Assembly (NCBI GenBank): GCA_963829055.1
Contig: CAWHHI010000005.1
Coordinates: 307,970-371,969 of the forward strand
Direction of reading: 5' to 3'
DNA length: 64,000 bases
Source: an uncultured Gemmatimonadaceae bacterium
GTDB taxonomy: Bacteria; Gemmatimonadota; Gemmatimonadetes; Gemmatimonadales; Gemmatimonadaceae
Part shown: piece by piece, positions 1-55,682 of the stretch
Layout of the letters: the number at the start of each line of letters is the position of its first letter
Numbering within the stretch: position 1 is the stretch's first letter
Notes under the pieces: generated by a model
The model's input: the letters and a program-made list of their open reading frames with translations, nothing else
Database searches by the model: none
What the model was told of the DNA's origin: nothing
Made by a program: the position numbers and the translations under genes

Positions 1-2282
1 AGATCATCACGAAGAAGGGACGTCCGGGCGCCAACCGGTTCGTGCAGAGCGTGCGCCTCGAGGCTGGCCGCACCGACCAGGATTACATGCCATACGACAA
101 CTATGGCAACTGCACGGAAGCGCTCGTCGCCCCCACGAGCACCAATCCTCTCTGCCGCGGGCAGGCGGTCGGCACGCTGGTCCACGACAACCCGCTCAAA
201 CGCGCTGACATCTTCCGCATCGGCAACGACTTCTCGTTAGGTTGGAACGCCACCGGCGGCGGCCAGAACTACGGGTACAACCTCACGTTCGGCAAGGAGA
301 GTGTGAACGGCACCCTGCCGAACAGCGGCCTGGACAAGCTCAACGCCCGCGTGAACTTCAACTTCGTTCCCGATCCCCGCCTAACGATCGATGCCGGGAT
401 TGGGCTCGTGCGGAACATGACGCAGCTGCCCAACCTGGACAACTCCGTCACCGGCTGGATCGCCGGAGGGATGCTCGGCTCCCCCCTGACGCGCACTGAC
501 CGGCCCGAAAACAGCAACGATGGTTGGTTCGGCTACAACCGCCAGTACAACGCGATCCGATCGGTCGACAACCGGTTGCGCACGAACCGGTCGATGCCGA
601 GCCTGACGGCGAACTATGGGCCGGTGTCCTGGTTCACCAACCGGTTTGTGCTGGGCGCCGACATCGCGACCGACCGTCAGGACGAGTACTACCCGAAGAA
701 CGACAGCTCGTGGTACACACCTGCGCTGCAGAACTCGGGTCAGGCGACCGAGGCGGCCCGCACCGCCGAACGGTACACGTTGGACTACCTCGGCAACATC
801 CGCCGCACGTTTGGAAAGGGGGACCAGTGGGAGGGCAACCTCTCCTTCGGGCTGCAGGCGGTGGCTACCAAGAACACGACCACCAACTCGCAGGGTGTCG
901 GGTTCGTGACGAACTCCAACAATACGATCACGTCCGCGGCAACGACCACCGGGGGTAGTCAGTTCACCGAGCAGACGCAGTACGGCTACCTCAGCCAGTT
1001 GCAGGTGGGCCTCAACAACCGTGCGTTCCTCCAGGTCGCGGTGCGCGTCGACAAGAACTCTGCGTTCGGTGAGACGGCGCCGGCGTTCGTGCTCCCCAAG
1101 GTGGGCGCCACATGGACGCTCTCCGAGGAACCGTTCTTCGAGGGCCTGACGAAATACGTGAATACGCTGCGAGTGCGCGGCTCGTGGGGCACGACGGGCC
1201 GTTCGCCGGCCCCCGGCGCGGCACTCTCCACGCTCATCGCCGCGCCGTACAACATCACGGGCACGACCGTCGCCGGGGCCAACCCCGGCAACCCTGGCAA
1301 CGCGGACTTGAGACCGGAGCGCGGCACCGAGTTCGAGGCCGGCTTCGACGCGAGCTTCTGGAAGGACCGGGTCACCGCTGAGCTCACGTACTTCGACAAG
1401 AAGACGACCGACCTGATCATCGCCAGGCCAATCCCGCCGTCGCTGGGCTTCAACACCAATCCGCTGGCGAACATTGGCGAGGTGATCAACCGAGGCATGG
1501 AGGCGGCGCTGAACGTGACCGCGGTCCAGACCACGAACTTCAGCTGGGACATCCGCGGCGGCCTCAACACGCTGCATAACGAGTTGACGGACCTGGGCGG
1601 CGTCGCGCCGTTCTCGCCCAGCACCAACGGCCGCACCCGCGCAATGAAGGGAGAGCAGATCGGCGTGTACGTGTCGAAGAAGATCCTGTCGATCGACGAT
1701 GCTTCGGGCGTAGTCACTGTCAGCGATACGCTCACGCCGATCGGTAACCTGTACCCGACGCTCGAGTGGAACCTCACGAACGGCGTCACGCTGATGAAGA
1801 ACTTCCGGATTACCGGGTCGTTCGACGCGAAGAAGGACTTCGTCGTCGACAACCTGCGGGATTGGTACACCGAGACGCTGCTCATTCACAGCCAGCGACG
1901 TCTCGATCCGAACTACTTGTCGCGCCACGAGCGACTGCGCCGCTACGGCAACGACGCGCCGGGCAAGCCGGCCTTCGTAACGCAGAAAGGTCTCTCGGCC
2001 ACGACGAGCGACGTCTACGAGGCCTTCGTTCAGCCGGGTGATTTCGTTCGATTCCGCGAGCTCTCGGCAACCTTCACGTTTCCGCAGAAGCTCGTGCGCA
2101 ACCTGGGCGCCAGAGTGCAAAACGTGTCAGTCGCCTTCGCGATGCAGAACATCAAGCTCTGGACCGACTACGAGGGCCCCGATCCGGAAGTCATCGCCCA
2201 GAACGGGACCTTCGATCGGCAGGATTTCTTCTCGCTGCCGCAACCGAAGCGGGCTCTCCTTCGGTTGAACTTCACCTTCTGA
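1..2282 (+). CDS. SusC/RagA-family TonB-dependent outer membrane receptor (5' end outside window)
   Basis: The frame begins 'IITKKG' at the window edge (end of plug). Motifs GNADLRPE..TEFEAG, YFDKKT.DLI, NIGEV.NRG.E, GDFVRFRE. C-terminal Phe. Directly followed by a SusD-like gene. Confidence 0.92.
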   Translation, partial: IITKKGRPGANRFVQSVRLEAGRTDQDYMPYDNYGNCTEALVAPTSTNPLCRGQAVGTLVHDNPLKRADIFRIGNDFSLGWNATGGGQNYGYNLTFGKESVNGTLPNSGLDKLNARVNFNFVPDPRLTIDAGIGLVRNMTQLPNLDNSVTGWIAGGMLGSPLTRTDRPENSNDGWFGYNRQYNAIRSVDNRLRTNRSMPSLTANYGPVSWFTNRFVLGADIATDRQDEYYPKNDSSWYTPALQNSGQATEAARTAERYTLDYLGNIRRTFGKGDQWEGNLSFGLQAVATKNTTTNSQGVGFVTNSNNTITSAATTTGGSQFTEQTQYGYLSQLQVGLNNRAFLQVAVRVDKNSAFGETAPAFVLPKVGATWTLSEEPFFEGLTKYVNTLRVRGSWGTTGRSPAPGAALSTLIAAPYNITGTTVAGANPGNPGNADLRPERGTEFEAGFDASFWKDRVTAELTYFDKKTTDLIIARPIPPSLGFNTNPLANIGEVINRGMEAALNVTAVQTTNFSWDIRGGLNTLHNELTDLGGVAPFSPSTNGRTRAMKGEQIGVYVSKKILSIDDASGVVTVSDTLTPIGNLYPTLEWNLTNGVTLMKNFRITGSFDAKKDFVVDNLRDWYTETLLIHSQRRLDPNYLSRHERLRRYGNDAPGKPAFVTQKGLSATTSDVYEAFVQPGDFVRFRELSATFTFPQKLVRNLGARVQNVSVAFAMQNIKLWTDYEGPDPEVIAQNGTFDRQDFFSLPQPKRALLRLNFTF

Positions 2283-2298
2283 CCCGCCGAGGACCGTC

Positions 2299-3546: not shown

Positions 3547-3570
3547 TAACCCCGGCCACTTGGAGGCCCC

Positions 3571-5658
3571 GTGAACCACTCCCGAACGTCCTCGAGCGCG
3601 GCGTCCTGTCTCGTCCTTCTTTGCGCGGCGTCTGCACTCCCGGCGCAGCCGCAGCAGCCGCCGCTGTCGAACAAGATCGTGCTCGAGCAGTACCTAGACT
3701 GGGAGGAAGTCCAGGCTCCGCAGCTCTCGCCCGATGGGACCCAGATCCTGTTCACGCGCCGGTGGGTGGACAAGATGAATGACCGGTGGGAAACCAGCGT
3801 CTGGCAGATGAACGCCGACGGGTCTCATCCCCGGTTCCTGGTGCAGGGGTCTAACGTCCAATGGTCGCCCGATGGCAAGCGGATCGCCTACATCGCTAAA
3901 GGCGAGCCGACCGGATCGCAGATCTGGGTACGGTGGATGGACGCCGAAGGCGCGGCGTCGCAGATCTCACACCTCACCGAAGCTCCGGCCGATCTCGAGT
4001 GGGCGCCCGATGGAAAGTCCATCGCGTTCACGATGATGGTACCGGTGCCGCAGCAGGGGTTCAAGATCCCGATGCCCACGCCGCCGAAGGGCGCGAAGTG
4101 GATCGAGCCGCCGAAGATTGTCACGCAACTCACCTTTCGAGCCGACCGGATCGGTTTCACCGACGAAGGATTCCGCCACATCTTCGTGATCCCGGCCGAC
4201 GGGGGCATGCCACGGCAGATCACCAACGGCAACTGGAGCCACAACTCGCCGAGCTTCTCGGCCGACGGCAAGTGGGTCGCGTTCTCTTCATACCGAGTCC
4301 CCGACGCGGAGCACGCGTTTGTCGGGCGCGGGCTCGAGACGGAGATCTATGTCGCGAGCACCGAGAATGGTGAGATCAAGCGGATCACGAACCATCCGGG
4401 CTCGGACGTCAATCCGACCTTCTCCCCGGACGGTCGGTACATCGCTTTCATGTCCGCCGACTCGATCGACCATTCCGCGTGGCCTGACACGAAGCTCATG
4501 CTGATGAACGCCGACGGGTCCGGCCGTCGCGTGATCTCGGGCGCCCTCGACCGCCCGATGTCCGACGTACGCTGGGCCCACGATGCCAGCGGCGTTTATT
4601 TCAACGTCGCGAGTGAGGGCTCGCAGAACCTCTACTTCGCGTCGGTCGGCGGCCAGGTGCGGGCGGTGACTACCGGAACGCACATGCTCGCGGTCAGCGA
4701 CATCAGCCGGAACGGCGTCGCCGTGGGCGTGCGCTCGACATCGCTCAAGCCTAACGACGTGGTGACGTTCACGATACCCAGGACGGGAACGGTGAGTACG
4801 TTCACGCAGGTCTCCGCCGTGAACGACGACGTGCTCGCCGGCAAGGCACTCGCGCAGACCGAGGAGGTGTGGTACACGTCGACGGACGGGCTCAAGATCC
4901 AGGGGTGGATTGTGAAGCCCGCTGATTTCGACGCGCGGAAGAAGTACCCGCTCATTCTCGAGATCCATGGCGGGCCACAGTCGATGTTCAATGTTGGGTT
5001 CAACTACGCCCGCCAGCACCACGCGGCTAACGGCTATGTGGTGTTGTACACGAACCCGCGCGGCAGCACCGGCTACGGCAACAAGTTCACGGACCTGATC
5101 AAGAACGCATACCCCGGCAAGGACTTCGATGACCTGATGGCGGGCGTGGACACGGTGATCGGCCGCGGCTACATCGACACGAAGAACATGTTCGTCTACG
5201 GTTGCTCCGGCGGTGGTGTACTCACGGCGTGGGTGGTGGGCCACACGGACCGCTTCGCCGCAGCCGCTTCGCTCTGCCCGGTGATCAACTGGATAAGCTT
5301 TGTCGGCCAGACGGACGGGTCAGGCTGGTATCAGACGTTCGACAAGCCGTTCTGGGAGGACCCGAGCGAGCACCTGCGCCGGTCGCCGATCATGTATGTG
5401 GGGCACGTGAAGACCCCGACGATCCTGATGACGGGGATCCTCGACCTGCGCACGCCGATGCCTCAGTCCGAGGAGTTCTACCGCGCGCTCGCCCTTCGCG
5501 GCATCCCGACAGCGCTCATCCGATTCAACAACGAGTACCACGGCACATCGAGCACGCCGTCGAACTATCTGCGCACGCAGCTCTATCTGCATAACTGGTT
5601 CGACAAGTACAGCACGAAGCCTGCGGCCCGCGCCACAACGTCGGGGGGCACGCCGTAG
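3571..5658 (+). CDS. S9 family peptidase (dipeptidyl/acylaminoacyl peptidase) with PD40/TolB-like propeller
   Basis: Signal peptide, WSPDG repeats, IHGGP, NPRGSTGYG, nucleophile GCSGGG, DLRTP and His in EYHG. Confidence 0.92.
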   Translation: MNHSRTSSSAASCLVLLCAASALPAQPQQPPLSNKIVLEQYLDWEEVQAPQLSPDGTQILFTRRWVDKMNDRWETSVWQMNADGSHPRFLVQGSNVQWSPDGKRIAYIAKGEPTGSQIWVRWMDAEGAASQISHLTEAPADLEWAPDGKSIAFTMMVPVPQQGFKIPMPTPPKGAKWIEPPKIVTQLTFRADRIGFTDEGFRHIFVIPADGGMPRQITNGNWSHNSPSFSADGKWVAFSSYRVPDAEHAFVGRGLETEIYVASTENGEIKRITNHPGSDVNPTFSPDGRYIAFMSADSIDHSAWPDTKLMLMNADGSGRRVISGALDRPMSDVRWAHDASGVYFNVASEGSQNLYFASVGGQVRAVTTGTHMLAVSDISRNGVAVGVRSTSLKPNDVVTFTIPRTGTVSTFTQVSAVNDDVLAGKALAQTEEVWYTSTDGLKIQGWIVKPADFDARKKYPLILEIHGGPQSMFNVGFNYARQHHAANGYVVLYTNPRGSTGYGNKFTDLIKNAYPGKDFDDLMAGVDTVIGRGYIDTKNMFVYGCSGGGVLTAWVVGHTDRFAAAASLCPVINWISFVGQTDGSGWYQTFDKPFWEDPSEHLRRSPIMYVGHVKTPTILMTGILDLRTPMPQSEEFYRALALRGIPTALIRFNNEYHGTSSTPSNYLRTQLYLHNWFDKYSTKPAARATTSGGTP

Positions 5659-5899: not shown

Positions 5900-6112
5900 A
5901 TGACTCGGGCACTGCTGCTCCTGACGGCCGTGATGACCACGGCAAGCCTAACGACGTCACTCGGTGCTCAAGGTGACGACGTCATCCTCGTTCGTGGCGC
6001 GACGATCTACACCGCGACTGGTGCACCCATCAGCAAGGGCAGCGTCCTGATCCGAGCCGGCGACTAACGTGGCGCCGCCCGCAGGGGCCAGGATCGTCGA
6101 AGCAGCCGGTCA
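5900..6112 (+). pseudogene. N-terminal remnant of an amidohydrolase, paralogous to 50695..51906
   Basis: LGAQGDDVILVRGATIYTATGAPISKGSVLIRAG, then NVAPPAGARIVEAAG after a frame change. This aligns to LGAQGDAILVRGGTINTATGAPITNGSILIRAG...NVTAPPGVRIVDAAG at 50695; similarity then stops. Confidence 0.8.
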
Positions 6113-6259: not shown

Positions 6260-7934
6260 ATGCGCGCGCGATTCCTGAGCACGGCCGTGATCGCGTTAGG
6301 CCTGGCCGCTCGTCAGGCACCGACTCAACAGCCCGCACCGACGCGGCGACCCGTCGCCCAGCCGGCCAGTTCCGACACCGCAAGCCCAACGCGAAGCCCG
6401 CGATGACCCGCGCGTCGCACCGAAGCGCCGCGAGGGTGAAGGCCCGTTCCCGCGACTCATCATCAGGGGCACGACGCTGATCGACGGCACCGGCGCTCCA
6501 CCCCGCGGGCCCGTCGACATCGTGATCGAGAACAATCGCATCACGAACATCGCGAGCGTCGGGTACCCCGGCGTGCGGATCGACACAGCGGGACGCCCGC
6601 GCAATGCCACGCGCGAGATCGACGGGACAGGCATGTACGTGCTGCCCGGACTGGTGGACCTCCACGTCCATCAGGGCACCAAGCAGAAGGCGCCGGAGTC
6701 CGAGTACTACAACAAGCTCTGGCTCGCTCACGGTATCACGTCGGTGCGCGGCGTGCCGTTCGCGAGCTATGCCTATTCCATTGGCGAGAAGCGGCGGAGC
6801 GAGACGAACGAGATCACCGCACCGCGCTACTGGGTGTACCAGCGACCCGGCACCGGATGGCCGAAAGGCCAGGTCCAGAATCCGGAACAGGCGCGGGAGT
6901 GGGTTCGCTGGCTCGCGCAGAACGGAGGCGACGGCATCAAGCTCGGCGCCGAGAGACCCGACATCATGGCGGCGCTGCTCGACGAGGCGAAGAAACTCGG
7001 TCTGGGCAGCACCGCCCATCTGCAGCAGACCGGCGTCGCCCAGATGAACGCCGACGAGGCAACGCGACTCGGCCTCCAGACCGTGACGCACTTCTACGGG
7101 CTGTTCGAGAGCATGTACGAGAACAACTCCGTGCAGCCGTGGCCCGTCGACATGAACTACAACAACGAGCAGGACCGCTTCAGCCAGGTGGCTCGGCAAT
7201 GGTCGCTCGTAAAGCCGGGCGGCGAGAAGTGGAACGCGCTGCTCAACAAGTTCAAGGAACGCGACGTCACACTCGACCCGACCATGGTCGCGTACCTGAC
7301 GGGGCGTGACATGTTCCATCACATGAACGCGCCGTGGCATCAGAAATACACACTCCCCACGCTCTGGGCGTACTACCAGCCGAACCGTACGAATCACGGA
7401 TCGTACTGGTACTATTGGACCACCTGGGATGAGGTGGCGTGGCGCAACTTCTACCGGGTGTGGATGCAGTTCCTGAACGACTACAAGAACATGGGCGGGC
7501 GCGTCACGGCGAGCTCGGACGCCGGCTTCATCTACAACACGCCCGGATTCTCCACGATCCAGGAGATGGAACTGCTGCAGGAAGCGGGCTTTCACCCGCT
7601 CGAGGTCATTCGCGGCGCCACGCTCCACGCGGCCGAGACGCTGTTCAAGCCGAAGGGCCGCGAGGTCGAGCTGGGTGTCGTTAGGCGGGGCGCACTGGCC
7701 GACATCCTGATCGTCGATCAGAATCCGGTCGCGAACCTGAAGGTTCTCTATGGCATCGGGGCCCTCAAGCTCAACGACGAGACGGGGAAGCCGGAATGGG
7801 TGGGAGGCGTGAAATACACGATCAAGGACGGAATCGTCTACGACGCGAAGCAGCTGCTCGCCGACGTGGCCGCCATGGTCGACGAGCAGCGTAAGAAGAC
7901 GCCCGCGACGAACGAAGAAAGCGCGAAGCGTTAG
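6260..7934 (+). CDS. Secreted amidohydrolase family protein (frameshift near the 5' end)
   Basis: RBS GAGGAGG and ATG 6260 with signal peptide. IDGTGMYVLPGLVDLHVH (HxH), SSDAG, GALADILIVDQNP. Main ORF is 6522..7934. Confidence 0.85.
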
Positions 7935-7939: not shown

Positions 7940-9301
7940 GTGGATCGGCGTGCGTTCCTCAGGACGGGCGCTCTCACCCTCTCGAGCGCCGCGCTTGTCG
8001 CGTGCGGGCGCGATCTGCCGCTGGCGCCGCGAGGCCCGGACCGCGAAGGCCGGCGCCTCTTCTTCGCCAGCGGCATCGAGAACAGCTATCCGCTGCTCCC
8101 GAATGGGCGGCGCGTCGACGAGATGGAGAAGTGCGACCACTACCGCCGGTGGCGCGAGGACTTCGGCCTGGCGCGAGAGCTCGGCCTCGACGCGCTCCGG
8201 TATGGGCCGGCCTACTACCGAACCAATCCCGCGCCGGGGCGCTACGACTGGTCGAGCGTGGATGATCAGATGGCATGGCTGCGCTCATCCGGCATCACGG
8301 TGATCGCGGACCTCTGTCATTTCGGGGTACCCTCGTGGTTAGGCGGCTTCCAGGATGTCGCGTTCCCAGCGCAGTTCGCCGCGTACGCTCGCGAGTTCGC
8401 CCGACGCTATCCGTGGGTGCGCTACTACACGCCCATCAACGAGATCTACGTAGCAGCCACCTTCTCGGCCTGGTTCGGGTGGTGGAACGAGAGCCTAACG
8501 AGCGAGGGCGCGTTCGCGACCGCGCTGCGGAACCTCTGCCTTGCCCACGAGCTCGCAGTGCTCGCGATTCTCGCGGAGCGGCCGGATGCGATCTTCGTGC
8601 AGGCCGAGTCGATCGAGCGCTACGAGCCGGCGGACGACAGCGCGGACGCGGCGCGTCAGGCAGCGTTCTGGAATGACGCGCGGTACGCCTCGCTCGACCT
8701 CACGCTCGGACGGCCGCCGTCACCCACCTCGATCGATCTCCTTCGCCGAGGGGCGACGAGCGACAGCGACCTCGCGTTTTTCCGTGAGCGGCGTGCGATG
8801 GGACAGCGCTGGCTCGGTGTCGACTACTACGTGACGTGCGAGCAGGTCGTCTACGGCGACGGGAGGCGGGCGCCGGCGCCGCGGCGCACCGGGCTGGCCA
8901 CGCTGGCGCGGGACTACCATCGTCGCTACGGGATCCCGCTCTTCGTGTCGGAGACCAACCGCGTCGACATGCTCGCCGTGGAATGGCTCGACGAGCAGTG
9001 GCGGGAGACACAGCTCCTGGATCGCGCGGGCGTCCCGGTGAACGGATTCACCTGGTATCCACTGACCGACGTGGTGGACTGGCGGCACGCGCTGCGCATC
9101 GAGCGGAATGACGTCGACCCGATCGGCCTCTGCGACCTCGGGCGCGCCGTGCGCCCGGTGGGAAGAGCCTACGCAGCGCTCATCGCGAGCGCCGAACCCG
9201 TGCTCGCTGTGCAACGCATTGACGATAGGACCTCGCCTAACGCGAGCCGACTTGCGCCCGGCGGCACGGCGCCCGCCGCCGTCCCCTCTCGCTCCGGTTG
9301 A
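7940..9301 (+). CDS. Glycoside hydrolase family 1-like protein with Tat-lipoprotein signal
   Basis: FASGIE, HYRRWREDF, DLCHFG, YTPINE (acid/base), SETN (nucleophile). N-terminus is MDRRAFL...LVAC. Confidence 0.8.
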   Translation: MDRRAFLRTGALTLSSAALVACGRDLPLAPRGPDREGRRLFFASGIENSYPLLPNGRRVDEMEKCDHYRRWREDFGLARELGLDALRYGPAYYRTNPAPGRYDWSSVDDQMAWLRSSGITVIADLCHFGVPSWLGGFQDVAFPAQFAAYAREFARRYPWVRYYTPINEIYVAATFSAWFGWWNESLTSEGAFATALRNLCLAHELAVLAILAERPDAIFVQAESIERYEPADDSADAARQAAFWNDARYASLDLTLGRPPSPTSIDLLRRGATSDSDLAFFRERRAMGQRWLGVDYYVTCEQVVYGDGRRAPAPRRTGLATLARDYHRRYGIPLFVSETNRVDMLAVEWLDEQWRETQLLDRAGVPVNGFTWYPLTDVVDWRHALRIERNDVDPIGLCDLGRAVRPVGRAYAALIASAEPVLAVQRIDDRTSPNASRLAPGGTAPAAVPSRSG

Positions 9302-9957
9302 TCCGCCTGGCGCAGGCAATCGGTGTTCAGCGACTCTGACTCGGCGGATGCGGTTGGGCTGCCCGGTTTGGGCAGCACTTGCAGCAGCGGCGTTGGCTTC
9401 ACCGCAGTCGGCCCAACGAATGGCCGATCGTTGGCAAGGATCAGGACGATCGAGACGGCGATCGCCGTCGAGAACAGGCCTAACGCGATGCGCGCCGTCG
9501 CGCGACTGTCCGAGTGCACCATCGCGACGCCCACCAGCATGCAGACGGCCTGCAGGAGGAGCGCTGTCCACTTCACGCCGTTCACCTGCGTCTCGCTCAC
9601 GAGAATCCGCTGTCGTCGCGCGTCCAGCGCATTCTCCAGCGCCGACACGATTTCCCGCTGCGCGGCGACCTGCCCGGCCCCCTCCACCGGTGCGCCGAAC
9701 GTGACCCGGAGCGCCTGGGCGAGCGCCATCGGGATCATCGCCAGCGTCACCTCGCGGCGCGCCATCGCGGGCCACTCCTGACGTTCCACTTGCTGGATGT
9801 GCTGGCGTATCAGATCGCGAAGCTGTCCCGCCGCATCCGCCGGGAGCGCCTCCGAGAGCAGAACCGCCGCGCGGAGCGACGATGCCTCTCGATTCACGGC
9901 GGCGTTCGCTCGCTCGACGTCGCCCCACGCCTGCGACGCCAGGAACGCGACGAGCGT
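9169..9957 (-). pseudogene. DUF4239/bestrophin-like membrane domain lacking its N-terminus, fused in frame to the upstream gene
   Basis: LVAFLASQAWGDVERANAAVNREASSLR...EWPAM...LDARRQR...DRPFVG are typical of this family; the N-terminal TM segment is missing. Confidence 0.7.
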
Positions 9958-10744
9958 TCCGTGCGGGCTGAATGCCCGCTGCAGCGCGGCGGTCACGTCG
10001 AGACCCGTCAGCCCGACGAACCGGCCGATCTCCTGCACGGTGACGCCGCCGCCGACCAGGAAGCGCTGGCCGCGACTCCACTCACGCCCGGTCGTACCCC
10101 ACGCGACAGCGAATGAGGGAGTGGCGAAGGGAACGACCCGGATGCTCTGCCCCACAGCGAGCGAGAGCGGGACGGTGATGTCCGCCGTCCAGTGCTGCCT
10201 CTCGCCGAACGCGGCGTCCGCCCACCCCGCGCCGAACTCCAGCGTCGCCGTTCCGGTCGCGTCGTTCTCCGTGAAGAACGGGACGCGAAGGAAAGGGCGT
10301 GTGGTGACCAGGTAGTTGCTGTAGCGGATGCCCGCCATCAGCCGGTTCGTGTCGCACGAGGATTCAATGCAGAACTCCCCGTCGCCGCGCTGATACCCCA
10401 CGGTGCCCGAGAGCAGCGGGCCGCCCTCGATCTGCAGGTTGCTGACGAGGCCGTATGACGTCAGGCTTCGCCCCGCATCCAGCGCGCGCGAGCCGTACTG
10501 CAGACGAAACCCGAACGAGCAGTCTGTCATCACGGCTCGTCGGCATCACTGGGCCGACCGGCGTCAGGGCGCCTAACGGCGTGCTCGCGATCGCCGCCAG
10601 CGTGCGGGAAAGTCCCGTCTCCGATTCCGTCGACTGAGCCCCGAGCATCCGGGACACGAGTAGCGCCAGCGACACCGATCCCGCGATGACGTGCGACCGG
10701 CCAATGGTCCAGCGGGTCCAGCGGGCGCGCGGTATGGTTCGCAT
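9958..10744 (-). CDS. Secreted beta-strand-rich (outer-membrane barrel-like) hypothetical protein, frameshift ~10533, C-terminus replaced
   Basis: Signal peptide in ORF 10364..10744 and alternating hydrophobic strands in ORF 9169..10533. Confidence 0.55.
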
Positions 10745-10747: not shown

Positions 10748-11903
10748 CTATCTCCGCCCGCGCAGCCACCGTGAATACACTTCACCGTGCACGTGAGCGT
10801 CATAGCGATACACGCGCAGCAGTACACTGTCGCCCGCGGCGAAATCGAGACGCATGAAGCCGCTCGTCGCCTGACCTACGTACAGGCTCTGACGGAGCCG
10901 CGCCGCGCATTCGCCCTTGCCGATCGATCCGGCTCCGCTCACGAGCACGTAGCTCGACGTCCGCCCTTGCAGGACCTGGAGACTGTGGTCGTGACCCGCG
11001 GCAAAGATCGAGCGGAGGGCGCGTCGCGAGCGCGGCATTCACGGAGTCCCGCATCATCGTGTAGTTCTTGCCGAACAGATCCTGGCTCGTGTTCGCCCAG
11101 CGCCGGAACAGCGCGAACGCGCCACAGTAGCCTCCGTGCGGACCGCCTGTCATCAACGGATGGTGCGCGGCGACGATCACCGCTTGACCCGGGCGGGTCG
11201 TGCGCAGGGAATCGCGAATGGCTTGCGTGATCTCGCCGATGGTGTGCGTCGTGCAGCCGGTCGCGCGATCATCCGAGGCGGAGTCGCGGACGATGTAGTT
11301 GTGCAGCCACCATTGCGTGTCGAGCAGCACGAGACGTACGCGCTCCCTGTCCACGACGACGGGCCCGGGGCAACCGTTAGGCGGCACCACCATGACTGTC
11401 GCGCCCGGGTTCTTCGGTCGCTGTGGAACCAGCGCGCCCTGGCGTCTGATGATGAACAGACCGTCGGCCGCGGTGGCGGCACCGAAGAATCCGCCCTGGC
11501 CGCCGTCGGCCCAGTCATGGTTCCCGGGCACGAAGATGCCGGTGGCGCCACTGGGCACTGCCCGGATCTGCGCGTCCAGGCGACGCAACACGTCCGCATA
11601 GTTCGTGGCGATCTCCGGAGCGGTTCCGGCGGGGTACACGTTGTCGCCGAGGAAGAGGATCGTCGCGCGAGGCCCGACCGCCGCCGCATGCATTGCGAGC
11701 GAGTCCAGCACGGTCGCGGGCAAACGCGGGTCAGGCTCTCCGGCATCCCCAATGAGGAAGATGGTCTCGACGATCTCTTGAGGGGTCGGCGTCGGTACTC
11801 GCGCGCTTCGACAGCCAGCAATCGCGCCGATCGCGCCGAGCATCAGCGCGAGTCGGCCGACGCGACGTGCGCGTCGATGGACTTGAGACGTCCACTTCGA
11901 CAC
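10748..11903 (-). CDS. Calcineurin-like metallophosphoesterase lipoprotein (frameshift ~11010)
   Basis: Lipobox IAGC; motifs LIGDAG, LGDNVY, PGNHDW, AHHP, and GHDHSLQ in the second frame. Confidence 0.85.
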
Positions 11904-31579: not shown

Positions 31580-31605
31580 CTCCAATCGTTGATGGACGGC
31601 GGCGC

Positions 31606-43781: not shown

Positions 43782-45573
43782 TTATGGTTGAGCGCCGCGG
43801 CAGACGGCGACCGACACGCCGGGCACGCGCGACCACTGCCACGACTCGTTGATCATCGGACGTGTCATGTAGGTGAGGTACAGCAATTCTCCGTCGCGCG
43901 CGACGTCGAGTTTCATCGGTTGAACCCGATCGCTGACGAGCAGTTCGGCCGCGATAGGTGTCGTGACCACATCCCCGTTTCGAAGTCCCGCGTCTGCCGC
44001 AGCCGACGACGGAACCAGGCTCACGACAGTCTGCACTCCCGGCGTGCGTCGATCGAACGCGAAATCCGGCACCACTACCTGCGTCCACGAATGCGTGAAG
44101 CACGGACCGAACGCGTCAGGCGGCAGGAACACGGTTTTCGTCCCGCGGACGACAACGGAGTCGAGCTCCGCGGCAACACCAGGGCCTAACTCTTTCGCCA
44201 GCGCGTCGGTGAAGGTCCGCACGCTGACCGTCCCACCTTCCGCGCGTCGAGCAAACAGGTCGAGCAGGATGTCGTCGAGCGACCGTGCGCCGCCCGACGC
44301 CTGACGAATCGCGGCATCCAGCGCGAAGAAGTAAAGCGACCCGCGCACGTACGGCAGTAACTCACCGTTCTTGTCGGCCCAGAACGCCGCGCTGGCGGCG
44401 TCGTTCGTCGCGTTGCGGTACGGATTCCCATTGTACTGCCGTGATAGCCGATTCAGCTCGGCGACGAACACTTTGAGAGGCTGCAGTTCGAGCCGTCGCT
44501 GGAGATTCGCGGTGAAGTACGTCGCCAGTCCTTCACTCGCCCACGGACCCGCGCCCTGGAACGAGCCGGCCCAGCCGTGGATCATCTCGTGGGCGACAAT
44601 GCTCCGCAGTCCCGTACCGTCACCGCCGGACGTCGAGCGCCGAGGATGCCTAACGGGAACCTGCAGCATGAACGAGCGGTTCCCTGCCGTGCCCCCCGAC
44701 GTGGTGGACTCTGGAAGGACGCGCAGGAAGAATCGGTACGGGCGTTGGGCGGTGTCCCCGAAGTACGTGCTGAGCGTCTTGTAGGCCTTGGCCGCCCACG
44801 CCATGTCGGCGCGAAGGTCGAGCGCTGGCGATGAACCCAGCCACGCCGCGCTGAACCCGCCGGTGTTTCCGGCCGCGGGATACCTGCCTAACGGCCCTGC
44901 CATGAACCAGCTCGATTGGAGGCCCGCGAGTGCCATGGTCGCTTCGGCGTCCCCGTCCCCGAGGCTGGAGATGCCAACGGAGCCGCGCCGGAGGGCGCGG
45001 AGATCCCAGTGGATGCGCACTCGGTACTGCCGCGCATCCTGCGGCAGCGCGAGGAAACCGGCACCACCACCGCTCACGCCTCCAGCGAACGTGCGCAGGT
45101 CGAAAGGCGGACCTGCACGAAGACGGCCTGGCGGAACGGTCGCGCTGTAGTTGCACCGTGACCGGAAAGGAAACGGAACGCGCGGTCCGCCAGCGACGAC
45201 TGTAGCCGAACCCGCTCGCGTCCACCGAATCGTCCGCCCTCGTCATCAGGACCGGCCCTATGCCGTCATCGACGCGGAAGCCTCTGATGCGATCGGCGAT
45301 GCCGGGGATGTTGTTCAGTACGATCGGCGCGCGAAACTCCAGCATCGGTGCCACGCGCACCGTGTCGGTGAGATGGAAGGTGACGAGCACGGCTGCGACG
45401 TTGCCGGCTTTGTTTCGCTCGGGCCGCAGGACGATCTCAATGCCGGGCGTAACCACGGTGTCCGCCACCGCGTCCTGCGCGAACGCCGCCACGGGCGCGA
45501 CAAGCGCGAGGAAGGCGACCGTCGCCCACCCGCGCACGCCGGCGGACCGACCAATCAGACCACCGTCAAGCAT
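43782..45573 (-). CDS. Zinc metallopeptidase (M61/M1-like) with C-terminal PDZ-like domain, frameshift ~45100-45150
   Basis: Signal peptide; AHEMIHGW (HExxH), W..EGLATY, PYVRG, SAAADAGLRNGD. Confidence 0.8.
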
Positions 45574-47219: not shown

Positions 47220-50200
47220 TCAGTAGCCCAGGTTGAACCGGATGATGAACGTCCTCGGCTGTCCCTGCTGCACGAAGTTGTAAGGAGTCGCATCCGTGCC
47301 CGTCGTGAGGATCTCGGGATCCCAGCCCGTGAAGTCGTTCGCCGTCCAGAGCCCCACGTTCCGGGCGCTCAACACGATCGTCGCCGAGCGCGAGCGCACG
47401 ATGCGCGTGACCGACTGCGGGAGGTCGTAGACCGCCGCGATCTCACGCACGCGAACGAAATCGCCCTTCTCCCAGTACGCGCCGAGCGCACGACCGACCG
47501 CCATCGCGCGCGCCTGGTCGAACTGTGGCGCTTTCGGGTCGTGAATGGCGCGGCAGTTGTTCGGGCCGAGTCCGCACGAGAATCCGGTGCTCACCTCGTG
47601 CGTCGTGAATCCGCCGCGGTAGTCGACGAGGGCCGAGAGACGGAGGTGATCGTTGAACAGGCCGACGGTGTTGTTGAACCCGATCGTCCGCGTGGGAACC
47701 GTGCTGCCACCGAAGACAGAGCCACTCGACACCTGAACCTCGCTAGGCTCGATGACGCCGTTGTTGTTCGCGTCGCTGTAGCCGGTCATGGTGGGCCAGT
47801 ACGCGGCGAACAGCGGCTGGCCTGGTTCGTTGCGATACCCGAAGCCACCGAAGGGCGAAACGCCAGGCGCCAGTGACTCGAGGCGGTTCTTGTTCCACGC
47901 CGCTTCGACCTGCAGGTCGTAGCGGAACGAGGTGAACTCGAGCACGCGCGCGTTGAGCGACACCTCGAGGCCTTTGTTCGTCACGACGCCGACGTTGTCG
48001 AAGACGTTGATGCCGGCGGTCTGCAATGGCGCGAGATCGCGCTGCACGATCGCGTCGGTCGTCTTCTTGTCGTAGTACGTCGTCTGCAGGTTGACCCGAC
48101 TGTGTAACGTGGTGACATCGAAGCCAAGCTCGATCTCACGCGACCGCTCGGGTTTCAGGTCCGTGTTGCCGAGCCGGCCGCCGAACGCCCCGAACGTCAC
48201 GGCGGGCACGGCACCGCTCAGGATCAATGCCGTCACCGGCGCAACGTAGGTGAACGCCGCGTTCACGTCGGGTTGCTGCCCCGACTCACCGAACGCGCCA
48301 CGCAGACGAAGGTTGTTGAGCCAGCGTGCCGCGCCGTTTTCCGCGGCGACCCACGACACGGTCGCCTTGGGATAGATCGCCGCACCGAAGTCGGCGCCGA
48401 ACGCGCTGTTCTCGTCGCGCCTAACGGCACCCGTGACGAACAGCCGGTCGTGCCATCCGAACTGCTGCTCGAGATACGCGCCCAGCGTGACGGCGTCGAC
48501 GGTCTGTTCGCTGGACTGCTTCTGCGCGCCCGCGTCGAGCGTCGAGCCGCCTGGCGGAAGAATGCGCGCATCGTTGAACGTCACCGCGCGCTTGTCGCGG
48601 TTCCACTGGGCGCCGATCAATGTCTTCGACGTCAGGTCGTTGCTGATGTTCCTGTTCGCCGTGGCACCGAGATCGACGGAGTACTTGCCGTTGTTGTACT
48701 TGCTGATGCCGCGAAGGCCTTGCCACTCAATGCCGCAGATCTGGCATCCCTCGCCTGCCCGCACTTTCGCCTCGTCGTTCCACATGATGTAGTCGATACC
48801 CACGGTTGCCCGTGTCTGGATCCAGTCGACCGGCCGCCAGTTGGCGTTCGCCGAGTTCGTGAACTGGTTCTGTGTGCGCGTGACTGACTTCGAGAAGCCC
48901 TGACGCGGCGGGGCGAAGCCCCACACGTTTGGCACGTTTGGATTCGCCGTCCCGAACAGCGCCGAGCCGACCACGCCCTGCAGATTGTCACCCGTCTGCG
49001 GAAGCAGGTTGCTCATCGTGTTCATGCCGGCGGAGATCGCGAGGTCGGACTTCGGGGTCATTGTGACGTTGAAGTTGCCGCGAAGCCCCGTCCTCGACAT
49101 TTGATTCGGTAATCGCTGATCCCGCGGGATGGACGTCGTGTTGCGAATGCGATACAGCGAATCCAGCTCGCTGTCCGGCATCTTCAGCACGCCGACTTCG
49201 CCTTCCCACGTCCCCGAGACGAAGTAGCGAAGCTGGTCCGAGCCACCGGACACCTGGGCGCCATACTGCTGGCGATTCCCCGTGCCGAACGGCGTCGTCT
49301 CCTTGTCCTCGAGGAGATTGCGCGAGTAGCGCTGCTGCACCGTGCAGAGCCCCTGCACCTCACGCCAGCTCACACAATCGATCGGCTGGCCCGCCGTTGT
49401 TGTACCCTTGTTGTAGTACTGGCCTGGGTAGTCGTAGGGATCGACGCTCGTGCCCAGCACGGCGAAGAGGTCCCACCGCGGCGCGCCGGTCCTTCCACGC
49501 TTCGTGGTGACGACAATGACGCCGTTCGCCGACTGCGTGCCGTAGAGCGTCGCGGCCAATGGGCCCTTCACGATCTCGATGGTCTCGATCTCTTCCGGAT
49601 TCAGGTTGTTGAGAAAGCTCGGGCGCCCGCCACCGACACCCGTCTGCCCAACCGTCAATGGATTGATGTTGGGACTTCCGTTCTCGACGCGCACGCCGTC
49701 GACGATCACGAGTGGATCGTTCGACAGCGAAGCGGAGCTGATGCCGCGAACTCGAACGCGCGATCCACCGCCAACGGTGCCGTTCGACTGGATCAACGTG
49801 ACGCCGGCGGTGCGCCCGTTCAGCACATCCTGCATCGCCGTGATCGGCTGCTCCTGCACCAGCTTCGCGGTCTCGATCTTCGCGATCGAGTTTCCAAGCT
49901 CGCGGGTGAGTTGTTGTCCCGTCGCCGTCGTGACGACCGTCTCGAGTTGGAACGCGGCCTTGGCGAGCACGAAATCGAGTGTCGTCTCCTGTGCGGCGCT
50001 GACGGTCACGCTTTGTTGGCTGGACTGATAGCCGAGCGCGATCACGCGCACCGTGTGCCCGCCCGCGGGCAGACCGCGCACGAGGTAGACGCCTTGCTGG
50101 TTCGTTTGGGTGCCGAGGTTTGTTCCGACGATCTGAATCTGCGCAAACGGGATGGGTTGTCCGGACTCTTTTTCGGTGATCTTGCCTGTGAGTCGGACTT

Positions 50201-50291: not shown

Positions 50292-50694
50292 GGCAAGTTG
50301 GGCTGTCGGTGATGAATCGTCCCGGAGCGGACCGGGCGGGGTCGGCGGGAGGCGGTCGCCCGCCGTTCGAGTGTGCTCCTCCTCGCGCGATTGGCGTTAG
50401 GCAATCAGAGGGACTAGCGGAGGCGCTTCGTGCCCAAGACTGGCAACAATTGAGACCGCCCGCAAGCAGTATGGTCCATTCTCACTGAATCAGCTCGCTC
50501 GCCGGCGCACTCACGGCTCCCCGCGTGCCGGACGCGCAAGCCCACGGACATGCGCCGCGCCGTGCCGGTCACGCGACGCGCTGTTGACGCGACCGCCGCT
50601 GACACGTAAGACATGTCGTGCTCGAGCAACTCGCGCCGAGCGACCGTCGTGCTGCGCTGCCACGCGTACGATCGAACCCTGTCTATTCGATCTC

Positions 50695-51906
50695 ATGATC
50701 CCGACATTCCTGCGCCTGACGTCCGTCGTAGCGGCGACCGTCGTCCTGACGCTGCCTCTTGGCGCTCAAGGCGACGCCATCCTCGTTCGTGGCGGAACCA
50801 TCAACACGGCGACGGGGGCACCGATTACGAACGGCAGCATCCTGATCCGGGCCGGCAAGATCGTCGCGGTCGGAACGAACGTGACGGCGCCGCCAGGCGT
50901 CAGGATCGTCGATGCGGCAGGGAAGGTCGTCATCCCCGGCATGATCGACAATCACTCCCACATCGGCGCTCGGTCAACCGATCTGAACGACTCCCCGATG
51001 TTGATCGGGCCGCAGCATCGGTTCATCGACGCGCTCGACTGGAACGATCCCGATTTTCAGGATGCCGTCGAAGGCGGTGTCACCACCGTCGTGACCGGCC
51101 CCGGGAGCGGTGAGAACGTCAGTGGGATGGCCGCGGTGATCAAGACGTTCGGCGCCGACTACACGAGGCGGATGCTCCTCGAGAAGGGCGGGATGAAGTT
51201 CGCGATGGGCCCCAAGGGACGGGCACGCTACCCCGCGACGGCGATGGGCGTCGCCGCCAACCTTCGTCAGTACCTGATCAAGACGCAGGAGTACATGGCG
51301 GCGCAGAAGAAGTGGGAGGATGACGGGAAGAAGGGAAACCCGCCGGCGCGCGATCTCGGCTACGAGGCAATGTCCGACGTCCTGACGAAGAAGACGTACG
51401 TGCGTGCGCACGTGCACTCGGCGACGGACGTGATGACCCTGACGCGGCTCAAGGACGAGTTCGGATTCGACCTGACCATGCATCACTCGACGGAGGCGTA
51501 CAAAGTCGCGCCGGAGCTGGCCAAGCGCGGCATCTCCGCCGTCGTGCTCCCGTTAGGCCCCCGCATTGGCGTGGGCGAGGATGCCATGGCCGGCCCCTAC
51601 ATCTTGTGGAAGGCCGGCGTCAAGATCGCGATGCACACCGACGCCCCGGTCATCAGCGAGAAGTGGCTTCGGCTCTGCGCCGCGCTGGCGATGCGCTACG
51701 GGATTCCCGAGGACGAAGCACTCAAAATGGTGACCTTGAATGCCGCGGAGATCGCGCGCGTCGCCGACCGCGTCGGCAGCATCGCCGTCGGCAAGGACGC
51801 CGATCTGGTGATCTTCAATGGGCCGTGGTACGAGCCCAGGTCGCGGGTCGATTTCGTGATCGGAGACGGCGTGGTGATCTACGATCGCGCGAAGGAGGCC
51901 AAGTAA
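50695..51906 (+). CDS. Secreted amidohydrolase
   Basis: PGMIDNHSH, GGVTT, HVH, MHH, HTDAP, GSIAVGKDADLV. Confidence 0.88.
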   Translation: MIPTFLRLTSVVAATVVLTLPLGAQGDAILVRGGTINTATGAPITNGSILIRAGKIVAVGTNVTAPPGVRIVDAAGKVVIPGMIDNHSHIGARSTDLNDSPMLIGPQHRFIDALDWNDPDFQDAVEGGVTTVVTGPGSGENVSGMAAVIKTFGADYTRRMLLEKGGMKFAMGPKGRARYPATAMGVAANLRQYLIKTQEYMAAQKKWEDDGKKGNPPARDLGYEAMSDVLTKKTYVRAHVHSATDVMTLTRLKDEFGFDLTMHHSTEAYKVAPELAKRGISAVVLPLGPRIGVGEDAMAGPYILWKAGVKIAMHTDAPVISEKWLRLCAALAMRYGIPEDEALKMVTLNAAEIARVADRVGSIAVGKDADLVIFNGPWYEPRSRVDFVIGDGVVIYDRAKEAK

Positions 51907-51907: not shown

Positions 51908-53188
51908 ATGTCCCACGCTCCTCGCAGCTCTCAGCTCGCTGCATCCATCGCGACCGCACTGCTCGTCTTCTCCGCATCGGCCTCGGCCCAGGAGCGGGCG
52001 ATCGCGATCCGTGGCGGCACTGTGCTGCCCATTAGCGGGCCCGCGATCCCCAACGGCACCGTCGTCATTCGCGGCGGGAAGATCGTAGCCGTCGGTGCCA
52101 ACGTCACCGTGCCCGCCGGCGCGGAGATCGTCGACGCGGCGGGGAAGTATGTCATGCCCGGGGTGATCGACGCCGTGTCACACATCGGCATCGACGCCAA
52201 CGACCTGAACGAGCCCACGGACCCGATGACGCCCCAGAATCGCGCGTGGGAGGCCTACAACCCGTTCGGCACATTCGGCTCGGGGCAGGTTGCTCCGCTC
52301 CGCAACAAGGAAGCGCTGTCGGGCGGCGTTACCACTCAGTACATCGCGCCGGCCGACGCCCAGTTGTTAGGCGGCCAGGGGGCGGTGGTGAAAACCGCTG
52401 GTGCCACGCTCGACGGCGTCCTGCTGCGCGAGCCGGCCGCCATGGACATGGCGCTCGGGACCCCGCCCAAGACGCCCGCACGCGCAGCGAACCGGGATCC
52501 GTTCACCCGCATGGCCGAGGCCGCAATGTTGCGGCAGTTGTTCGTGAAAGCGCAGGAGTATCAGCGCAACAAGACCGCGAACGCGACGACTCCGCGCGAC
52601 CTCGGCATGGAAGCGTTAGGCAGGATGCTGCGCAAGGAAATCCCGGCGCGGATCGAGGCGAACAACGCGACGGATATTCGCATGGCCTTGCGGCTGGCCC
52701 AGGAGTTCGGCTTCGACGTCGTGATCGACGGCGGCGCCGGCGCGTGGGAGCTCAAGGACGAGCTGGTGGCGAAAAAGGTGGCCGTCGTCCTTGGCCAGGT
52801 GTCCCACGAGTACATCAGCAACGAAGAGATCCCCGACAAGCAGGACTACCCCAAGCCTGACGAACGTCTCGCTGCGAGGCTGACGAACGCTGGCATTCCC
52901 ACCGCGATAGCGACGTTCTCCCGCGCGTTCGGTACGCTCGCGCCTGCAGGGACCGGGAAATGGTTGCTGATCGACGCGGCGATCGCGGCGGGCTATGGCA
53001 TGACGGATGATCAGGTGCTGAGAGCGGTGACATTGGTGCCGGCCCAGATCCTCGGCGTCGCCGATCGTGTGGGCTCGCTGGAAGTCGGCAAGGACGCGGA
53101 CGTCGTCGTGCTCGATGGACCGCCGCTGAGTGTGAAGACGTGGGTGCAGCGGGTGTACGTGAGTGGGGAGCTCGTGTACACGAAGTGA
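51908..53188 (+). CDS. Secreted amidohydrolase-like protein with degenerate metal ligands
   Basis: PGVIDAVSH (first His lost), GGVTT, GSLEVGKDADVV; starts 1 bp after the upstream stop. Confidence 0.85.
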   Translation: MSHAPRSSQLAASIATALLVFSASASAQERAIAIRGGTVLPISGPAIPNGTVVIRGGKIVAVGANVTVPAGAEIVDAAGKYVMPGVIDAVSHIGIDANDLNEPTDPMTPQNRAWEAYNPFGTFGSGQVAPLRNKEALSGGVTTQYIAPADAQLLGGQGAVVKTAGATLDGVLLREPAAMDMALGTPPKTPARAANRDPFTRMAEAAMLRQLFVKAQEYQRNKTANATTPRDLGMEALGRMLRKEIPARIEANNATDIRMALRLAQEFGFDVVIDGGAGAWELKDELVAKKVAVVLGQVSHEYISNEEIPDKQDYPKPDERLAARLTNAGIPTAIATFSRAFGTLAPAGTGKWLLIDAAIAAGYGMTDDQVLRAVTLVPAQILGVADRVGSLEVGKDADVVVLDGPPLSVKTWVQRVYVSGELVYTK

Positions 53189-53473
53189 GAGCGAGGCGTC
53201 CTGGAGGCTCAGCCGCGCTGGACGCCGCCGCTCACCCTGGGCGGCGCCTAACGAGTCATTCGTTGACGGTCCTGTATTTCCCTTGAGAAGATTCACGAAA
53301 CCCGACGGCTTCGCTCTTCAAAGCGTCGGTGAACAAGGCGTGTAGCCGAACACTCGGATCCGCCCCAGCCAAGCTTGATTGGCGGCAGCATTTTACTGCC
53401 CTCACGCGTTGCCGCTCGACAAGCCGTGTGCCCCCACGGTAAGATGGAGACGTCTCTCCACCCAGAGCCGCCC

Positions 53474-55682
53474 ATGTCGCCAAAGGCCCGGATCGTCCCC
53501 GTCGCGGTCCTCCTCCTCGCTGCCGGCATTGCTCAGGACGCCGCTGCGCAGGCCTCGTACAAGAGTGACCCGCCACGCCGCGCGTTCCTCTTCAAGGACG
53601 CCCGCGGGGAAATCGCCGCCGCGCGCGCGCGTGGCGACACCACCGTCACCCTCGTCGTGGCGTCGATGGCCGGCCAGAACGCCAAGGTCGCTGCCCTCGT
53701 CAAGAAGCTCGGTGGCACGATCCGTTACCGCGAAGACATGGTGGATTACCTTCGCGTCCACGTGCCGGTCGACAGCGTGGAGTCTCTCGTGCGGAGTCCG
53801 CTCGTGCACTCGAGCGACGTGTCGATCAGAGGCCGCTCGAGCCGCGCGTTAGGCCTCGCGGATGGCGCCGGTACGCCCGCAGCTCAACCGTCGTCGACGC
53901 TGCCCTTTGCGCCCGACACGGCGAAGCCCGCGTGGCCGCCGGTGCTCTCGGACGCGCCCCTCGTGGATCGGTACGACCCAGTGACCGACATGGGTGGCGC
54001 CGAGTGGCGCAAGGCGAACCCCACGTTCGACGGACGTGGCGTCACGATCGCGATCATCGACCAGAGCCTCGACGCGCTGCTGCCGGAGCTGCAGGTCGCG
54101 AAGACCCTCGCGGGCGCGTCGACGAGGAAGATCGTCGGCTATCGCACCGTCGTCGACTTGGACGAGGAGAATGACGGGCAGTGGTTCCGCATGAAGGACG
54201 TGGTGAGTACCACCGACGGCAAGATCTCCTGGGGCGGAAAGACCTACACTGCGCCTGCAGTCGGCACCTATCGCATCGACCAGCTCGACGAGGCCCTCTT
54301 CGATTCGCTCAACCGCGCCGGCATCGAGAAGGACGTGAATCGCGACGGCAACCTGCCGGGCTCGAGTCGTTTGTTCGGGATCCTCTGGAACGAAACCACG
54401 AACGACGTCTGGGTCGACACCGACCAGGACAACGATTTTAGCGACGAGAAGGCTTACACGGACTGGGCCACCCGTCCCGAGTTCGGCACGATCGGGAAAG
54501 ACAAGCCGGAGACACCGATTCGCGAGAGCGTCTCCTTTGCGATCCAGATCGACAAGGCGCGCAAGCTCGTCGCCCTCAACCTCGGCGTCGCGTCACACGC
54601 GTCGTTGGTAGTCGGCGCGGCGGTGGCCAGCCGTGGCACCGCCGGTCGCTTTGACGGCGTGGCGCCGGGCGCTCAGCTCGTGAACATGGCCGAAGGAGGT
54701 GCCGCCTACGGGCAGACCGAAGCGGTGATCGAAGCGGCGAAGATTCCGCAGGTCGACGTGATCTTCACCGAGCAGAGCTCCGTCATCGCGCGGAACTACC
54801 TGCTGTTCGACGGCCGGCTCGTGCCGACTGTCATCTACGGTCGAGTGATCGAGAAGTACGGCAAGTCGATCATCCTGCCGACGCACAACTACGCGGTGCT
54901 GGCGGCGATCGACGACTACGCCCTCGCACCGGGCGCCATTTCCATCGGTGCCCACGAGAGCAAGGCGAATTTCTTTGCAAACCACGGCGTGCGGGTGCAG
55001 TACGACGACAACCTGCTCATCACCGGCGGCTACGGCCCGATGGGCAATGGCGCGCTCAAGCCCGACATCATCGCGCCATCCAACTACGTGAGCACGGGCC
55101 GCGGCTTCCTCGAGGGCACTGCGATTCCCGGCCTGATGCAGCTGCCTCCGGGCTACAACATCGCCGGTGGGACTTCGACCGCGACGCCGACCACGGCGGG
55201 TGCCGTCGCACTCCTCATCAGCGCCGCACGCCAGTCGAACGTGAAGTTCGACCCGTACCGCCTGCGGCAGGCGATCATGACCTCGGGTCGCTGGGTCTCG
55301 CACATCGCGGCGAACAAGCAGGGGAACGGCGTGGTGAACATCGCCGCGGCCTTCGAGGCGCTGAAGGCGATGGACACGGTGAAGACGCCGATCACGATCG
55401 TGAGCCGAGCGCCCGTGAAGCATGCAATGGCGCACCTCCTCGCGACGCCTAACGAAGGCGTCGGCATCTTCGAGCGCGAGGGGTGGGCCGCTGGCGACCG
55501 CGGCGACCGGACGGTGACGTTCACGCGCACGACGGGTCCCAAAGGCGCCCTGCCCTTCACGGTCGGCTGGAATGGCAACGACGGGACGTTCACGTCGGCC
55601 ACCGCGGTGAGCCTCCCGTTAGGCAGACCCGTACCGGTCACGGTCGGCGTCGCGCCGACGACCGCTGGTGTACACACGGCGA
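53474..55682 (+). CDS. Secreted S8 serine protease, C-terminally truncated at the junction
   Basis: DGRGVTIAIID, SHASLV, GVAPGA, LKPDIIAP, GGTSTATP, QGNG. After VHTA the sequence switches to an unrelated gene. Confidence 0.85.

Follow-up and report, generated by a model that had tools for sequence, protein, structure and literature searches.

A genome-wide octamer of Gemmatimonadaceae that coincides with the integron attC core box and resembles DNA uptake sequences

The genomes of some Gemmatimonadaceae carry thousands of copies of one exact octamer, GCCTAACG (reverse complement CGTTAGGC), here called the word. It was first noticed in a 64-kb stretch of DNA, the window (G000:C5:307970-371969, reaching the contig end), taken from the genome of an uncultured soil member of the family, the source genome G000. 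The word is a real signal at the level of DNA, not of protein or RNA, and occurs at ~0.6/kb in the native DNA of the genus. It is also identical to the core (R') box plus one base of the attC sites of Gemmatimonadales integrons. By analogy, and with somewhat less than even confidence, we suggest that the word may work like the uptake sequences of Neisseriaceae and Pasteurellaceae and may have spread by an uptake-sequence-like drive.

The word in the genome and in the window

The source genome (7,784,024 bases in 20 contigs, 66.7% GC) contains 5004 copies of the word, 2457 on the plus and 2547 on the minus strand, spread over all 20 contigs at 0.48-0.80/kb. Although half of its letters are A or T and the genome is 67% GC, the word ranks about 31st among 65,147 octamers by raw count, and 7103 of the 8933 genomic CTAA tetramers (~80%) fall within CCTAAC. 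The count is 49 times the order-2 Markov expectation and 13 times that of the reversed control word; lower Markov orders were used because the word's own sub-words absorb the signal at maximal order and make that ranking unusable. Enrichment also survives control for codon and amino-acid composition, as shuffling synonymous codons within genes (n=5) left 154-174 copies against 3346 observed, a 21-fold excess. The flanks display only weak preferences at positions -1 and +8 and no conserved extension; the word is therefore not part of a longer repeat.

To place the copies relative to genes, we relied on a purpose-made, crude gene caller (7652 calls, 78% coding) run on an assembly with frameshifts. 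Within genes, 1576 copies are sense and 1783 antisense. Every frame free of an in-frame stop is used, whichever way the word points relative to the gene: sense copies are read as nnG CCT AAC G (936) or nGC CTA ACG (612) and antisense copies as nCG TTA GGC (1328) or C GTT AGG C (455); 28 copies occupy the frame with an in-frame stop, and 1645 are intergenic or at a gene edge. Fully 1330 of the 2927 TTA codons sit within the word, and 1391 of the 3615 Pro-Asn pairs (38.5%) are written CCTAAC, the commonest spelling although CCT is a rare codon. Gene ends use the word as well, with 246 genes stopping in GCC TAA CG and 201 in CGT TAG GC, and the first 60 nt past stops are enriched 2-3x for it in both orientations. 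We considered selection for hidden stops ("ambush"), as the word offers an off-frame stop in either orientation, yet this leaves the exact flanks, the spacer enrichment and the clade pattern unaccounted for.

For the window, the earlier note had listed 51 exact copies of a non-palindromic octamer, 25 on the plus and 26 on the minus strand, and all 51 were recovered at those positions and in those orientations; the octamer is indeed asymmetric. The density, which had been put at about one copy per 1.1 kb, measures 0.92/kb within 379-55624, and the eyeballed GC of ~68% is a fair figure (64-73% by 4-kb bins). The enrichment itself holds, whereas its size had been misjudged: in place of ~2 expected copies and a ~25-fold excess, 100 dinucleotide-preserving shuffles of the window gave a mean of 1.19 copies (maximum 4), a ~43-fold excess. 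The window has 60 one-mismatch copies in total; eight of the ten positions named for such copies were confirmed, and those at 24821 and 36987 are not one-mismatch copies.

On the plus strand, exact matches to GCCTAACG lie at 379..386, 4749..4756, 5946..5953, 8493..8500, 9235..9242, 9478..9485, 10571..10578, 12008..12015, 15348..15355, 16384..16391, 22186..22193, 26555..26562, 29356..29363, 31604..31611, 32237..32244, 37833..37840, 37916..37923, 39791..39798, 40317..40324, 42607..42614, 44648..44655, 44886..44893, 48419..48426, 53246..53253 and 55447..55454. Exact matches on the minus strand, which appear as CGTTAGGC on the plus strand, lie at 6294..6301, 7679..7686, 11375..11382, 14056..14063, 16711..16718, 19808..19815, 22017..22024, 24651..24658, 27025..27032, 27247..27254, 27871..27878, 29590..29597, 29881..29888, 33524..33531, 35557..35564, 40052..40059, 40427..40434, 40880..40887, 41552..41559, 42003..42010, 43614..43621, 50395..50402, 51551..51558, 52614..52621, 53847..53854 and 55617..55624. 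The remainder, 55625..64000, is a word-free tail.

Distribution, spacing and conservation of the copies

The enrichment extends beyond one contig and one genome. All seven genomes of the genus are enriched, with 2501-5112 copies each, whereas among 21 relatives the other genera of the family hold 6-38 copies, below the reversed control, except G010 with 605. In a family panel of 151 genomes from 77 genera, we termed a genome word-rich at no less than three times the count of the reversed control word and word-poor at no more than one third of it. By this measure 38 genomes of 21 genera are word-rich, with a top density of 1.33/kb in genus g14, 88 are word-poor and 25 are intermediate; four genomes flagged as unpublished enter these 151-genome tallies only. 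Genera are mostly uniform. Genus g54 is split, with 3896 copies in G062 and 4141 in G162 versus 66 in G120, that is ~0.95 words/kb in the rich pair and 0.013 in G120; G120 is also a rather distant member, its pilins being 50-62% identical, compared with 83-95% within the rich pair.

An independent sample of named records covered the surroundings of PolA, where nine of 45 Gemmatimonadota loci have 0.35-0.66 copies/kb, one has 0.13 and 35 have 0.08 or fewer. The closest PolA relatives are records titled Gemmatimonadaceae, which bears out the earlier guess of a Gemmatimonadota-like lineage. A quick PolA tree of 46 rows, with three multi-stop loci left out and six short, partial or distant loci untabulated, places the word-rich loci in two well-supported clades over an unresolved backbone: one unites G000 with L160, and the other has eight members and a word-poor sister, L166. 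A second, weaker enriched word, GCCAAACG, was seen in G010 (48 copies versus 9.4 expected).

The word has no polarity. Windows of positive GC skew in the source genome have 919 plus and 976 minus copies and those of negative skew 1382 and 1387, 2589 of the 4984 pairs of adjacent copies lie on the same strand, and at none of the scales tried (20, 40, 100 and 300 consecutive copies) does a polarity domain rise above permutations. The lack of strand bias reported for the window thus extends to the genome and its replichores. Sampled relatives have both strands too (G119 38/36, G086 23/16, G022 75/48). Apparent one-strand runs in G061, G119, G161 and G086 were discarded as an artefact of listing order, since the DNA of G119 and G086 has mixed strands. 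The only lopsided case is a small sample, G010 C1:1-200000, with 25 copies on 6 plus and 19 minus positions.

The copies are spaced more evenly than chance would have it, avoiding one another and avoiding leaving long bare stretches. Relative to the exponential expectation, gaps shorter than 200 bp in the source genome occur at 0.16-0.56x, gaps of 0.5-1.5 kb at 1.26x and gaps longer than 3 kb at 0.77-0.87x. Counts per 10-kb window are otherwise Poisson-like (mean 6.43, variance 6.49).

Comparison between species shows both upkeep and turnover of copies. Across 160 kb of alignment between G000 and G005, 47 copies are common to both and 39 are specific to each. Word positions are fully kept in 47 of 86 cases, whereas the same holds for 22% of 8-column windows overall and for 20 of 80 control words. 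The sequences that face species-specific copies are mostly ungapped and carry several mismatches. Between genera, copies of the source genome are shared at or below background, in 2/23 cases with G119, 2/22 with G086 and 2/44 with G010; G022 shares 9/23, which counts against simple independence between genera. In polA, separate lineages created the word at different codons, and each birth paired a synonymous switch to a rare codon with the replacement of an amino acid (GTC or GTG ACG to GTT AGG; CCG GAC to CCT AAC). The word arises by substitutions, including ones to rare codons and ones that change amino acids, and is kept between species beyond its surroundings.

DNA that is not native to the genome lacks the word. 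Empty 10-kb windows number 14 of 771 in the source genome against 1.2 expected, and they have atypical GC. The largest gap, C6:5440-55037, spans 49.6 kb at GC 0.70 at the start of its contig and encodes aroC, trpG/D/B, DAHP synthase, pepA, ftsK and others. Its housekeeping genes are divergent second copies, 47-60% identical to those elsewhere in the genome, which marks the block as foreign. It is probably a contaminant or a chimeric join in this metagenome-assembled genome, or else a large transfer. In the window, no copy lies beyond 55.6 kb because the contig's final 8.4 kb (GC 72.3%) are not native-like DNA. This tail holds ordinary metabolic genes, including a DUF255 thioredoxin-like gene, an AMP-binding enzyme and a TetR-like gene. 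In five congeners its matches reach only 68-72%, in ~1-kb pieces, whereas stretches within the first 20 kb have 76-92%. The tail is not conserved in the genus and is mis-joined, foreign or accessory DNA.

Frameshifts in the assembly leave pilB-like and comEA-like genes out of frame part-way (C12:490001-498000); they lower the quality of gene calls and may explain a completeness of 85.9%. Chorismate synthase is split in two in the C6 block (locus L080:16577-17801). Further oligomers over-represented in the source genome, GAATGACA/TGTCATTC, CATTCCGA and ATTCCGAG, with the longer forms AGTCGAGGAAT and TCCGAGCGGA, may be a dispersed repeat or a regulatory element.

The word as the core box of attC sites

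Word-poor relatives have the word in one-strand clusters, and these clusters are integron cassette arrays. Their attC sites are 88-103 nt long and run from GYCTAACA at the start to CGTTAGGC at the end; all 31 aligned sites, which come from two related genomes, have the octamer without variation. The consensus of the attC core is GTTRRRY, or inversely RYYYAAC, and the GTTAGGC within the word fits it; by our own count, ~0.4% of octamers would do so by chance. Large arrays were seen in the word-poor genomes G015 (C95:1-32000, C80 and C43) and G013 (C3), with about one attC per 0.4-1.3 kb in two subtypes of ~90 and ~102 nt, and a covariance model gave 51 matches in G015. The open reading frames of the cassettes in these arrays contain no internal words.

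The genome-wide copies differ from attC sites: they are half-sites standing alone, which lack L boxes, a hairpin partner and a cassette, and they arose by substitution in conserved genes. An attC profile returned no nhmmer match in the source genome, and a structural scan returned one hairpin; copies of attC were accordingly rejected as the source of the genome-wide words. Convergent word pairs 50-150 nt apart number 25 there versus 21 divergent ones, with no excess of R''...R'-like arrangements. A covariance-model search for attC in genus g1 scored only 150 of ~8000-9800 candidates and is not relied on. The identity between word and core box is itself plain, and it may or may not be causal.

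Two loci of the source genome stand beside this comparison. At C18:97494-97548 lies a perfect hairpin of 55 nt with the word at one end and its complement at the other, the only attC- or terminator-like pairing of words found in the genome. At C20:208041-208958 lies an integron-integrase-like gene at the family cut-off (265.7 versus 265 bits), with no adjoining attC array; words on its two sides are oppositely oriented, which is not significant genome-wide.

Candidate readers of the word and their implications

A repair bias at a single position is too weak for an excess of 20-50x, and mutation would not space copies evenly; the force at work therefore recognises the whole double-stranded word, and it must be either a transmission bias or selection per site. 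No reader protein was identified among the integrase, nuclease, methylase, Vsr, pilin and competence families tested.

We put an uptake-sequence-like drive first because the full pattern matches the properties of uptake signal sequences (USS) and DNA uptake sequences (DUS). Of the three functions suggested in the earlier note, the others being a nucleoid-protein site and a DNA-modification target, this one has the best fit. These are short, non-palindromic words found at ~0.5-1/kb on both strands, in genes and spacers alike, which are clade-specific, evenly spaced and scarce in acquired DNA. The Gemmatimonadaceae word resembles them in density, in its use of both strands, of several frames and of spacers, in clade-specificity, in even spacing and in its scarcity in acquired DNA, and the genomes encode the type IV pilus/ComEA/ComEC/DprA gene set. 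On this view, a component of the route at the cell surface or in the periplasm would favour DNA in which the word is present in double-stranded form. Kin fragments with the word would enter cells and recombine more frequently, and this bias in transmission would carry the word into whatever DNA undergoes recombination within the lineage. The expected outcome would be one word for each stretch of fragment size, with recent acquisitions left unmarked.

Several observations weigh against this proposal. The earlier note had proposed looking for co-occurrence with competence genes, and these are present: ComEC, ComEA-type HHH and pilins in 21 of 21 relatives, PilT and DprA in five of five tested genomes. 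They are equally present in word-poor relatives, however, and so are not specific to the word. The comEA/pilB region of the source genome is frameshifted in the assembly. A receptor of the ComP_DUS type (PF16732) was not found in the source genome, but the search gave no match in any control genome either, so that this negative carries little weight. The pilin comparison within genus g54 gave no candidate common to the source genome, and a minor-pilin cluster present in G062 and G162, with no counterpart in G120, was rejected as receptor for having no homologue in the source genome. Unlike USS and DUS, the word belongs to another phylum, has a different sequence, coincides with an attC core box, is avoided by 88 of 151 genomes and is not paired into terminators; competence is here predicted from genes. 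Nor does it come in dialects: 21 of 77 genera are enriched in the identical octamer, and no substitute was found in 85-200 kb samples of the word-poor G007, G008 and G009. Our literature searches found no uptake or transformation data for the lineage, including in the accessible part of PMC7305173. Finally, every positive feature would fit a chromosomal binding site under weak selection as well.

Regarding the genes of this route, a neighbourhood of pilT, pilB-like and comEA-like genes occurs both in the word-rich source genome (C12:490840-494800) and in the word-poor G008 (C2:789039-792477), and the source genome has a pilin cluster at C12:~401.4-403 kb. Literature searches, with supplements outside their reach, recovered no published description of GCCTAACG or CGTTAGGC, string matches in both orientations being primers or unrelated, and nothing relevant on integrons or attC, natural transformation or uptake sequences in Gemmatimonads. 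An existing explanation, which the earlier note had allowed for, was thus not found.

A binding site of this kind is the main alternative, possible in our view but doubtful. A chromosomal protein could bind the word in place, with weak selection on each copy; the word might, for example, serve a scanning repair, defence or nucleoid system as a mark of own DNA. This would explain the indifference to orientation, the even spacing with its exclusion zone below ~200 bp, the conservation between species and the absence from foreign blocks, and it requires no competence. However, no known protein depends on a single exact 8-mer present ~5000 times irrespective of orientation. At thousands of sites, selection on the individual copy would need to outweigh the costs of rare codons and amino-acid changes, and no candidate gene was found.

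The identity with the attC core box raises a further alternative, which we regard as improbable, namely that an integron integrase or a derived recombinase reads the word, its copies being lone R-box half-sites that act as attG-like landing sites or decoys. The invariant core box in all 31 aligned attC sites, and its fit to the attC consensus, speak for it. Insertion of cassettes by integrases at genomic attG sites is also described in the accessible part of 10.1101/2022.09.11.507474, but the attG sites given there require only a GWT consensus. The integrase does not track the genome-wide words: with the profile TIGR02249 at E<=1e-50, matches occur in 26 of the 38 word-rich genomes and in 70 of the 113 others (Fisher p=0.56), and no match was found in three of three genomes of g14, the richest genus. 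The source genome offers neither attC matches nor an excess of convergent pairs, and the cassette reading frames are free of words. The variants of the word that are tolerated (G>A 17x and G>C 9x at position 1, C>A 7.7x at position 3, G>A 15x at position 8) do not follow the degeneracy of RYYYAAC, and depletion is seen for T>C at position 4 and for C>T at both position 2 and position 3. Given this variant spectrum and the phyletic pattern, we set aside the integron integrase itself as the reader.

Alternatively, and this too we think has little chance of being right, a reader other than the integrase, situated in the uptake route, could recognise the core box as double-stranded DNA and so favour both kin DNA and cassette arrays from across the order. 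Such an uptake bias would have left the genome-wide copies as its footprint. The order of events fits such a sharing of one word, since the word is fixed in the attC sites of word-poor lineages and is spread genome-wide only in some clades. Natural transformation is described as feeding cassettes to a chromosomal integron in the accessible part of PMC12614218.

The proposal that the word is a target or by-product of DNA modification with biased repair, in the manner of HIP1 or of very-short-patch repair, appears weaker still. HIP1 (GCGATCGC) of cyanobacteria is a palindromic octamer that occurs at ~1/kb in genes, overrides codon preference and is linked to methylase sites. The Gemmatimonadaceae word likewise runs through genes at roughly 1/kb against codon preference, with its function unsettled, and has adenines on both strands; unlike HIP1, it is asymmetric, and no methylase family tracks it. 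Our searches covered C5, N6 and N6/N4 methylases, with Dam-type PF02086 and the Eco57I family outside them. Vsr was found in none of five genomes and a C5 methylase only in the word-poor G120. The source genome and G062 have no match to PF02384 or PF01555, and 21 of 38 word-rich genomes have neither. PF02384 occurs in 14 of 38 word-rich and 43 of 113 other genomes, which is no difference, and PF01555 (N6/N4 methylase) in 9 of 38 versus 54 of 113 (p=0.013, the related genomes not being independent). Moreover, a repair bias at one position would at most about double the word, rather than raise it 20-50x, and a mutational process would not create the deficit of short gaps. These results weaken the earlier suggestion of a modification target, and a drive linked to Vsr or a methylase was rejected.

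We consider it very unlikely that the word is a Chi-like signal for a helicase-nuclease, with polarity lost since breaks in soil bacteria would be mostly two-ended. Chi (GCTGGTGG in E. coli) and the FtsK-orienting polar sequences (KOPS, GGGNAGGG) are native 8-mers read by DNA-processing machines and are polar to replication. Like Chi, the word is an over-represented 8-mer that marks own DNA, and counted in one orientation it occurs ~1 per 3 kb, a frequency of comparable magnitude; unlike both Chi and KOPS, it has no polarity at any scale. The helicase-nuclease searches covered RecC and PDDEXK_1, with AdnAB outside them. RecC was found in none of five genomes, and PDDEXK_1 (AddAB-type nuclease) was found in G000, G120 and G008, whereas two of the richest genomes, G062 (96% complete) and G022 (92% complete), gave no match. 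As these nuclease families do not track the word, and polarity is absent, we rejected this explanation. Lastly, an artefact of composition, codon usage, dispersed repeats, or sequencing and assembly, for which only the error-prone, frameshifted assembly of the source genome could speak, has practically no probability and is refuted by three independent nulls (dinucleotide shuffle, codon shuffle and Markov), by the unconserved flanks, by the recurrence of the word in 38 separate assemblies of 4 to 1170 contigs and by the copies kept at orthologous positions.

The word has practical uses. It flags native as opposed to foreign or mis-binned DNA in metagenome-assembled genomes, as it did here by exposing the 49.6-kb block, and the contrasts between rich and poor relatives (G062 and G162 versus G120; the rich PolA clade versus its poor sister) offer a clean comparative search for the reader gene. 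Because the word is identical to the core box, one can test for a connection between cassette exchange and the reader of the word; if both kin DNA and cassette arrays are favoured through it, a single DNA word would join natural transformation to the traffic of integron cassettes. To our knowledge, experiments have established words of the uptake-sequence type in only two families, both proteobacterial. If the word does act as an uptake sequence, it would be a third case, in an abundant and barely cultured soil phylum, and DNA self-recognition would be more widespread than those families indicate; it would also provide a handle on gene flow in soil.

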